Shown here piece after piece: positions 8,893 through 21,569 of a stretch of 64,000 nucleotides of DNA. Under the pieces are notes generated by a model, which had not been told where the DNA came from, ran no database searches, and worked only from the letters and a program-made list of their open reading frames with translations. A program made the translations under genes and the position numbers. Source of the stretch: Octopus vulgaris (lineage: Eukaryota); NCBI GenBank assembly GCA_951406725.2, contig OX597818.1, positions 96,410,001 to 96,474,000 on the forward strand, in the 5' to 3' direction. Position 1 is the stretch's first letter, and every line of letters starts with the position of its first letter.

Positions 8893-9224
8893 TACTTTTT
8901 CATTTTCCGGAGCGTGAAACTAATACACCAATCTTCGTCTTTTATTTTTCTATAAATTTCAACTATATATTATGCCGATGAAGGAAATGAATATGTATAA
9001 TTCTAATCCAAAAACGCGTCAATAATTAATTGTAGACTGTTTGATTTCGTTATTTTTTCTTCTCTTTGCCTATGTAAGTTACAAATATTGTTGTCTGTAG
9101 AGTCATATTTGTAGTTAAAAGAATTAGCTGTCTTTTGGCTGCTATTTCAAAATTTTCGGTATGTGATGAAGCAACTTGTTGCTAAACTCTTAATTATATT
9201 TGTAATTATATATATATATATATA

Positions 9225-9347
9225 TATCACAGTGATCACCGTGACCGACCAGGCTATCAGATGTTGCTACACATCGCTGGTCACAATGCGCTTCTCATTG
9301 TTTTAGCCTTCAAATGACGCCACGCCGATGGCTAAGCGAGCAGGCCA

Positions 9348-9348
<1 letters not shown>
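9225..9348. repeat. Short interspersed repeat fragment in (TA)n; second fragment at 21655-21705
   Basis: cgtgaccgaccaggctatcagatgttgctacacatcgctggtca versus cgtgaccgattaggcaatcagactttgttatacattgctggtca. Confidence 0.6.
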
Positions 9349-9413
<65 letters not shown>

Positions 9414-9704
9414 GTATATATATCATTTACACACACAGAGTGAGTGAGAGAGAGAGTGCGAGTGAGAGAGAGCGAGTGAGAGAGAGAGAGAGAAAGTGAG
9501 AGGTAGGGCGAAAGAGCGAGTGAGAGTGAGAGGAGGTGGAGAGTGTGGAGTGAAATTATTTCAAAAGCATTGATTTTTCATTTCAAAACAATACGGAGAG
9601 CAAGAATATGGCGAAACATACCCAACGTAGCAGACGATTAGCAAACAGATGACAATGGTAATCATTTAGCTGTTACAATACCTGTTACATATATTTATTT
9701 ATTT

Positions 9705-11264: not shown

Positions 11265-11623
<359 letters not shown>

Positions 11624-13124: not shown

Positions 13125-15113
<1,989 letters not shown>

Positions 15114-15634
15114 AATACAACCTAAACAAGACAATAAAAAAAGACATACTATACGGCATTTACTTGGTGAAATAAACTCCCACTAGCAAGCCAGAAGGCT
15201 AAAGCATTGCACACTCAACACATAATACGAGCAGTAACACAATAAAAGACAGCACTACACCTCAACGAAAAAAAGCTAGCACAATACAGTACAGGGAAGA
15301 GTTCGCACACTCCCAACAGCAGAAAAACACACACCCAATGCTACACACACACACCAGCAACACGGAAGTGTAACAGGTGATGCAGTGGAAATTTGACTCA
15401 ATCTACTAAATATTGCAGTTATATTAATAGTTAAATGGCATAAACAGTTGAAATTGTGTTTGCTGTTCTGAAGAACAAAACGGTAAAGTGGACATTGTTA
15501 AAACAAAATGATATTTTGCACGGTCTTTCTCCATCCGACAGATAGACACACTATGCACATGCCCGTATGCACATATTCTTACACAAACGCATATGCGCAC
15601 AATCATATGTATATATTTTCATATGTGTGCATGT

Positions 15635-15681
<47 letters not shown>

Positions 15682-15917
15682 ATATATATATATATATATA
15701 TATAACAATGATAAATATCAATGTGAGTTATATACAGTAGCGGTAACACAACGTGATGTATTTTTGCCATTTCAATATGGCTAACCCCTAAGGGTGGATG
15801 CTACTGTAGATTTTAGCCCCAGGAGGACACACTCCTCCAGCTGGCCATAGACACACTTTCTGTGTCCTGTCAGTATTTGCAAAGGGAAGTCATCCTTCCC
15901 GTCTTCAACTTATGATA

Positions 15918-15962
15918 CACACGGACTCGAGTTTCGAGGTATTGACCTCTCGTCAGCGTGTG
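15918..15962 (-). ncRNA. Minimal type I hammerhead ribozyme, perfect consensus
   Basis: cacacg CTGACGA gaggt caat acctc GAAA ctcgag TC cgtgtg. Confidence 0.95.
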
Positions 15963-16403
15963 ACAATCATAGTTGTCGCCGAGAATTAGATTTCCTTCAC
16001 AAATACTTATACTTTTTCCAGCGTCCACTGTCGCTGATATTGAAAAAGTGAAATCAAACAATGATAAATATCAATGTGAGTTATATACAGTAGCGGTAAC
16101 ACAACGTGATGTATTTTTGCCATTTCAATATGGCTAACCCCTAAGGGTGGATGCTACTGTAGATTTTAGCCCTTAGCATCCACCTAGCATCCACCCTTAG
16201 CATCCACTGTAGCATCCACCCTTAGGGGTTAGCCATATTGAAATGGCAAAAATACATCACGTTGTGTTACCGCTACTGTATATAACTCACATTGATATTT
16301 ATCATTGTTTGATTTCACTTTTTCAATATCAGCGACAGTGAACGCTGGAAAAAGTATAAGTATTTGTGAAGGAAATCTAATTCTCGGCGACAACTATGAT
16401 TGT

Positions 16404-16448
16404 CACACGCTGACGAGAGGTCAATACCTCGAAACTCGAGTCCGTGTG
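16404..16448 (+). ncRNA. Minimal type I hammerhead ribozyme, perfect consensus
   Basis: cacacg CTGACGA gaggt caat acctc GAAA ctcgag TC cgtgtg. 6-bp helix I, 5-bp helix II, ACTCGAGT palindrome. Confidence 0.95.
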
Positions 16449-16615
16449 TATCATAAGTTGAAGACGGGAAGGATGACTTCCCTTTGCAAATACTGACAGG
16501 ACACAGAAAGTGTGTCTATGGCCAGCTGGAGGAGTGTCTCCTCCTGGGGCTAAAATCTACAGTAGCATCCACCCTTAGGGGTTAGCCATATTGAAATGGC
16601 AAAAATACATCACGT

Positions 16616-16646
<31 letters not shown>

Positions 16647-21071: not shown

Positions 21072-21133
21072 TAAGAGTTCTCGGAGTTTCGAATGTCGCA
21101 GCGATGAGCTACGATACGTTCTCGTCAGCTATT
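21072..21133 (-). ncRNA. Hammerhead relic (cleavage-site U lost)
   Basis: aatag CTGACGA gaacgt atcgtagc tcatc gctgcga cattc GAAA ctc c gag AA ctctt. Confidence 0.6.
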
Positions 21134-21569
21134 AATAGCAACAGACGCTATGAATAACCGTTGAATAAAAGGGAAGTTACTCTAATATATACACATACAA
21201 ACAGATTTATAATAAACGTATAATATATGCTTTGAATGTTCCTATGGTAGGATATCGATTATTGACCTACACATGGTTTAGCACGATGATTTGAGAACGT
21301 AAATGTAACATAGTGTACAGTCTTATAGCTATTGCTCGTCGTACATAACTGTATGTACGATGTTCCGTTAGAATAAAATCTCTTAATGAAATAATGTAGC
21401 GACACCATATAAGCTATTCGTCTGTTTTTATTACTTACGTGTGTATATATGTGTGTGTACGTATGCATGTATCTATTTATCTATACATACATATGTATAT
21501 ATATATGCACACACACACATACACACACACATATATAAAAATGCATATGCAGATGTATGCATATATGGA

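Follow-up and report, generated by a model that had tools for sequence, protein, structure and literature searches.

A young family of two-armed hammerhead elements in Octopus vulgaris with integration marks of the Penelope-like type

The closest described relatives of the octopus element analysed here, a 353-nt unit that we call U, are the animal non-LTR retrozymes (PMC7229834; bioRxiv 10.64898/2026.07.22.740005), with which it shares a non-coding tandem unit (150–450 nt, GC below 45–50%), a single type I hammerhead in every unit whose helix III is short and palindromic, dispersal at high copy number and the presence of Penelope-like elements (PLEs) in the genome. Statements attributed in this text to these two sources, and to PMC8557442, PMC3846280, PMC4209133 and PMC13282606, refer to the portions of them that were accessible. 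Animal retrozymes have been argued to be non-autonomous derivatives of PLEs (bioRxiv 10.64898/2026.07.22.740005, 2026), and circular RNAs have been proposed for PLEs (PMC4209133). Endonuclease-bearing PLE units (PMC8557442; PMC3846280) share another set of features with U, namely a partial tandem with an adjacent inverted, 5'-truncated copy, a tail at only one end, a bias towards (TA)n and a long target duplication where one is visible; they differ in that U has no ORF and a tail of 46 nt rather than 30–40 nt. PMC8557442 lists among the open questions how PLEs come by their tandem and inverted structures and by their tail. The non-autonomous elements of Chlamys, for example MRC1 (PMC8557442), are likewise PLE derivatives with multicopy head-to-tail insertions; they generally resemble the 3' end of their autonomous partner, whereas no such partner was found for U. 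The Poseidon PLE of Anolis, a predicted dimer, nicks AT-rich DNA in vitro, extends both strands and uses two adjacent start sites, and the PLE tail has been equated with the stretch between these two sites (PMC11167929). Poseidon and U have in common two adjacent internal start sites downstream of the hammerhead, a structured region and an AT-rich target; the Poseidon start sites lie inside the ORF, unlike those of U, and their pairing per event is not reported in PMC11167929. Ribozymes go unmentioned in the accessible portion of the octopus repeat annotation (PMC13282606).

The window is a 64,000-nt stretch of the Octopus vulgaris genome (contig OX597818.1), and the insertion within it has the following parts:

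15638..15703, no strand: (TA)n target microsatellite, left flank
15704..16172, minus strand (hammerhead-sense RNA): tailed arm of 1.33 units, starting at site A (unit position 1)
15704..15749, minus strand: 'tail' of 46 nt that separates start site A from B; the right arm lacks it at its outer end
15704..15850, minus strand: 3' region of predicted structure (fold z -4.4), in which hairpins and a multibranch junction surround both start sites
15918..15962, minus strand: type I hammerhead, predicted cut at 15924/15923
16173..16209: central junction, parsed from the sequence as three short extra copies of unit 89–101 with realignment on CTA/GGG microhomology
16210..16616, plus strand: tail-less arm of 1.15 units, inverted, starting at site B (unit position 47, at 16616)
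16404..16448, plus strand: type I hammerhead, predicted cut at 16442/16443
16617..16643, no strand: (TA)n target microsatellite, right flank
11328..11500: another insertion of the family, two-armed, older (about 90%) and again within (TA)n, with a B arm of unit 50–124 and an A arm of unit 3–100

The unit U corresponds to 15704–16056 (353 nt, 42% GC), and the ORF listing holds no frame of 150 aa or more over it. The left arm consists of U1–353 followed by U1–116 with 100% identity in register, and the inverted right arm (16210–16616, 407 nt) of U47–353 followed by U1–101; the two arms differ at exactly two positions, 16538 and 16341. The word TAGCATCCAC occurs four times in the junction (16174, 16185, 16198 and 16210), and (TA)n adjoins the insertion on both sides. 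The anatomy given in the initial annotation, about 1.3 copies of a non-coding 353-bp unit, a four-fold stutter, about 1.15 inverted copies with two mismatches and a setting within (TA)n, is thereby confirmed as real. The 46-nt stretch at 15704..15749 would, by inference from its position between the two start sites, correspond to the PLE tail of PMC11167929. Fold z-scores favour neither strand, as both fold well (-7.2 and -6.5).

Each arm carries an identical 45-nt type I hammerhead (15918–15962 minus; 16404–16448 plus) made up of a 6-bp helix I, a CUGACGA core, a 5-bp helix II, GAAA, a palindromic ACUCGAGU helix III and a GUC site. An earlier reading as a perfect minimal hammerhead in each arm holds in so far as the motif is intact and identical in both; its class is another, since with a helix I of 6 bp, a helix II of 4–5 bp and a helix III of 2 bp with a palindromic tetraloop it is a canonical metazoan type I hammerhead in the terms of Cervera 2014, unlike the min-HHR of PLEs, in which helix I has 4–5 bp, helix II 7–8 bp and helix III is reduced or absent (PMC4209133), and the min-HHR identity was rejected. 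At the gathering score Rfam gave no match over the insertion, so that the hammerhead call depends on the anatomy of the motif and on covariation. Over 34 aligned sister copies, whose relatedness inflates the counts, 12 of the 18 hammerhead pairs vary on both sides, a figure reached in none of 500 shuffles and in no slid control. The palindromic loop pair, which can form only between two ribozymes, swaps from C-G to U-A in 11 of the 34 copies, and co-folding of two copies gives a predicted dimeric hammerhead, in keeping with the earlier suggestion that the palindromic helix III suits cleavage as dimers. The covariation and the loop-pair switch are good evidence, at the level of sequence and short of proving cleavage, that point to selection for a dimeric hammerhead.

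Cleavage-nucleotide variants were also seen: 14 such matches (L160–L175) have GUU or GUA and never GUG, the single GUG being in an old sister copy. Hammerhead cleavage sites follow the NUH rule, with which GUU and GUA agree. Other hammerhead-like motifs lie nearby or within copies. Beside a long (TA)n run, the fragment at 14710–14900 of the window has a hammerhead-like core (CTGAAGA...GAAA, near 14840–14865) and is probably the end of another PLE family; a CTGACGA...GAAA motif with a 3-bp helix II, on the minus strand at about 21090–21135, bears no relation to the unit; and one arm of L016 holds (about 2258–2362) a 105-nt foreign piece with a complete hammerhead of another family in opposite sense (CTGATGA...GAAA, palindromic ACGATCGT, GUA site).

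Among 2292 candidate places in the 2.8-Gb genome the best 40 are full units, mostly at 97–99% identity, and an exact 59-nt hammerhead stretch occurs in 386 perfect copies. Sister families at about 82–89%, 79%, 71% and 65% identity, several of them tandem and head-to-head, likewise consist of non-coding tandem units of about 320–360 nt. Judged by these identities, U is confirmed as a young multi-copy family with older sister families, as its earlier description as a young, multi-copy, non-coding hammerhead element had anticipated. One sister-family array (L192, G000:C11:18752500-18760500) has about 14 units of about 320 nt and is far longer than the arrays of the young family. Contigs of 287–383 nt with 1–5 differences from the unit are present in public runs under at least four organism labels, and seven labels among the public runs contain more than half of the unit's words (15704–16172 compared); such contigs may reflect close relatives, mislabelling or recent transfer. 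The surroundings hold other repeats: a common, (TA)n-flanked, non-coding repeat of about 110–160 nt (window 9203–9437; L196 1869–2030 and 4593–4755) recurs in many of the loci examined, and decayed fragments of a non-LTR retrotransposon frame, putatively R4/Dong-like, lie at 13301–13855 and about 14980–15130 of the window.

U has a non-coding tandem unit in arrays of up to six units per arm, in every unit a type I hammerhead whose core is intact and whose helices are conserved, and copies that are dispersed over many contigs, lack LTRs and abut (TA)n directly; neither the unit nor the sequence in line with it has an ORF, and thus not the RT and GIY-YIG frame of an autonomous PLE. On these features we place U as a new family in a known class, the animal non-LTR retrozymes, held to be non-autonomous PLE elements. 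It departs from the animal retrozymes as described in that most copies are short and two-armed, joined head-to-head and bounded by two fixed ends (the word 'inverted' has no occurrence in the main text of PMC7229834), and in that no homologous autonomous-PLE pLTR was found among the families checked. The initial annotation had thought the family possibly undescribed: the literature searched gave no account of the U family and no count of tail pairing, either of which Repbase, Dfam, subscription papers or supplements may hold, and the class itself has been described (PMC7229834; bioRxiv 10.64898/2026.07.22.740005).

A regularity concerns the outer ends of the copies, which fall at two sites 46 nt apart, A (unit 1–5, tailed) and B (unit 47–55, tail-less). 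Loci were chosen by two exact, (TA)n-flanked end patterns, which returned 54 B and 49 A ends in C1 to part of C5; these gave 77 loci, all of which were examined, and 76 were kept after removal of L035, a duplicate of L033. Two arms in head-to-head arrangement are present in 42 of the 76, with centres that differ among loci; both ends lie at the defined sites in 38 of these, the remaining four having one end elsewhere. A tabulation of ends of the kind proposed in the initial annotation gives one A and one B in 37 of the 38, one A/A locus (L094) and no B/B (binomial p 3e-10 against 1:1). The rule is obeyed by the insertion at 15704–16616 (A left, B right) and by that at 11328–11500 (B left, A right). 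Single arms make up the other 34 loci, and the 28 that have (TA)n on both sides divide into 25 B and 3 A (p 3e-5), counting as single A one locus, L090, that bears a few-base remnant of a B arm; the B pattern overlooked one subfamily, which makes the B excess conservative. Since the outer ends lie at two fixed sites in the loci sampled, with the few exceptions given, the copies are not circularly permuted, and the earlier claim to that effect has to be given up.

(TA)n flanks nearly all sampled loci, in a sample selected by a TATAT flank; the best 40 BLAST loci, drawn without that selection, are also mostly in (TA)n (30 stretches shown), and L016, a copy outside (TA)n, has an apparent 11-bp target duplication. 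In a young autonomous PLE of Neptune-like type, all 7 two-armed loci observed (two of them read across pairs of stretches) keep the one-tailed rule, as does, judged by eye, L195 from another family. The one-ended tail of PLEs is in print as 'often' or 'optionally' present in the accessible text (PMC8557442; PMC3846280); the present counts put figures on the one-of-each rule and on the excess of single arms that lack a tail.

In both arms the hammerhead RNA sense faces outward, so that the arms meet at their 5'-truncated ends. Arms of the same locus have 43 non-majority letters in common (mean 7.7, maximum 16 in 1000 shuffles), subfamily markers are concordant between arms in 34 of 36 cases, and the insertion at 15704–16616 has 54T and 107A in both; the two arms of a locus thus come from the same template lineage. 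Of 41 centres, BLAST shows an overlap, mostly of 1–8 nt, at 28 and a blunt joint at 2; the other 11 carry inserts, and several of these are templated from element sequence nearby. In the stutter at 16173–16209 the end of the B arm can be parsed as having realigned repeatedly on CTA before being joined on GGG/CCC, and L166 has a comparable triple stutter. Such stutters could result from reverse-transcriptase realignment or from end-joining repair; of the earlier proposal of repeated template switching, the templating from the element stands. An excess of inner arm ends at unit 98–108 (10 against 4.2 expected, p 0.012, post hoc) is only a hint.

We read these copies, with a probability of roughly 0.7, as non-LTR retrozyme insertions mobilised in trans by a PLE, in which two cDNAs begun at two sites were joined head-to-head. 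A PLE reverse transcriptase-endonuclease, the presumed driver, would act in trans on the 353-nt hammerhead element and nick both strands of the (TA)n target; two separate cDNAs would be primed from the two target strands, at B and at A, 46 nt apart, and copied from the same RNA or from sister RNAs, with the tail-less B end probably primed first. The template would be a longer-than-unit RNA, either an uncleaved multimer or a ligated circle, and the cDNA ends would be joined by microhomology-mediated repair or by realignment of the reverse transcriptase, leaving templated stutters. This reading builds on the A/B pairing in 37 of 38 loci, the variants common to both arms and the microhomology at the junctions, and the marks in (TA)n (two adjacent 3' ends, an inverted 5'-truncated arm, A/B pairing) agree with the involvement of a PLE put forward in the initial annotation. 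Against it stand the A/A locus, the two discordant markers among 36, arm ends that show no enrichment at the hammerhead cut, the absence of a U-like terminal repeat from the ORF-bearing PLEs checked, and the finding that start sites did not differ between the two strands in vitro (PMC11167929).

The form of the template can be taken separately, and it bears on the two-cDNA reading only in that respect. A circular RNA template is plausible, and the initial annotation had supposed reverse transcription around a 353-nt circular RNA. A template made up mainly of such monomeric circles, formed when the hammerhead cleaves and the ends are ligated, is a model compatible with the two-cDNA reading, and we give it slightly less than even odds. 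Arms longer than one unit (38 of 74, up to six units in one arm of L087) accord with it, and among locus-private variants 13 are fixed in every copy of a locus against 3 in a subset, which implies that the lineage is at times narrowed to a single unit, as it would be with a circle; DNA-level tandem expansion or jumping of the reverse transcriptase could likewise homogenise the arrays. The circle junction is identical in sequence to the tandem junction, and contigs do not separate the two; contigs from four public runs, presumed to be RNA, span the unit and were left out of the evidence, since they reveal neither strand nor ends nor circles. The cut site is passed 130 times with no arm ending there, one passage (L107) having a 14-nt insert exactly at the cut, and arm ends within unit 216–224 number 0 against 2.5 expected, no enrichment. 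Exact ends at the predicted cut are found in both arms of L166 and in the arm of L170, two loci genome-wide among 16 pattern matches, which is about the level of chance. Retrozymes of coral, mussel and axolotl have been shown to form circles (PMC7229834); on the other side, cleavage by the PLE hammerhead is dispensable in vitro (PMC11167929), and eight of nine Xenopus dimers failed to cleave (bioRxiv 2026.07.22.740005). L058 also weighs against the model: at a variant position successive copies have C, G, C and C in one arm and C and G in the other. This demands at least three distinguishable units in the template, more than a monomer circle can supply, and hence a linear multimer or a circle of three or more units.

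A bolder version, which we consider rather unlikely, would have U descend as an independent line of small circular RNAs with hammerheads that predates its current PLE partner and has no sequence in common with it; its insertions would then reflect a rule valid for PLE integration at large, by which a dimeric enzyme uses each site exactly once in an event, B first. If true, a dimer rolling on one RNA from both strands would account at once for the tandems, the inverted pLTR and the tail.

The arms might instead arise when a single cDNA folds back and copies itself into the inverted arm, later central deletions giving the asymmetry, but we regard this as improbable. Self-priming of this type has been proposed (PMC3846280), resolution by the endonuclease, to which PMC8557442 ascribes the tail, could account for the tail asymmetry, and fold-back would explain variants common to both arms, including the copy-specific variant found in register in each arm of L058. 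L166 and L045 are nearly symmetric about their centres, and the geometry fits 21 of 37 loci. In the other 16 neither arm contains the other, which is incompatible unless extra deletions are assumed; single arms are mostly B, yet a tailed arm that fits within its B partner is seen at only 10 of 37 loci; and the two arms of the composite L196, described below, derive from different elements. Arm lengths within a locus correlate (rho 0.50, p 0.0015), and central deletions after fold-back could imitate the independent arms of the two-cDNA reading.

It is very improbable that the copies are 5'-truncated ends of an overlooked autonomous PLE master rather than a self-propagating non-coding family. 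PLE ends of similar look exist in other genomes, the search for a partner covered few families, and best-match listings may hide rare ORF-linked copies. In U, however, one unit passes head-to-tail into another and no ORF intervenes, the sister families (65–89%) are built in the same way, and at none of the 76 sampled loci does U run into a PLE ORF in the same orientation. A U-like terminal repeat was absent from 30 GIY-YIG loci checked of 150 listed, from the full-length Neptune-like PLE copies checked, from 30 loci of the L196 family and from 36 loci of a very young long-ORF PLE family; apart from L196, U-like matches beside the checked PLEs are separate insertions in shared (TA)n. Two loose contig ends examined for an ORF are single old non-coding copies, and two spaced sister-family loci considered as pLTR-ORF-pLTR arrangements were rejected on inspection.

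Several young PLE families of this genome have open frames, and its PLE families outnumber those examined. One of them furnishes a candidate partner: L196 is a (TA)n-flanked composite in which a tailed, 5'-truncated PLE copy, presumably Neptune-like by its motifs, stands head-to-head with 1.9 units of U. The insert at the joint has 7 nt, of which 6 match U, and the U arm begins at the non-standard unit position 300. Copies of this PLE family are 97–99% identical and have intact 784-aa frames; compared with U, its tail is shorter (26–34 nt), its hammerhead is another one and it has no sequence similarity. As a single case L196 points to a young Neptune-like PLE as candidate partner, and it could alternatively result from a deletion between two neighbouring insertions. 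Two further PLE groups were observed. Loci L228–L263 (for example G000:C8:57973500-57981500) belong to a very young family with long direct terminal repeats, in which 90 of 150 scored places are identical over a 120-aa RT stretch and stop-free frames reach 1214 aa; L193 and L194 are a young Neptune-like PLE with an extra upstream frame (359–479 aa stop to stop) ahead of its RT-endonuclease frame of 781 aa, and the core of its hammerhead is UUGAUAAG.

An assembly or long-read chimera artefact, which a near-perfect palindrome within simple repeats might suggest, can be dismissed in view of the unequal fixed ends and two arm mismatches, the dozens of loci with different centres (42 of 76 head-to-head) and other head-to-head joints in contigs of another public run.

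As a small, young, high-copy and non-coding family, U makes the integration products of PLEs countable. The near-strict use of one site of each kind, together with an independent origin of the two arms, predicts an outcome that can be checked in the existing in vitro PLE system, and a retrozyme family would be linked to the PLE machinery by its integration marks instead of by homology or co-occurrence.
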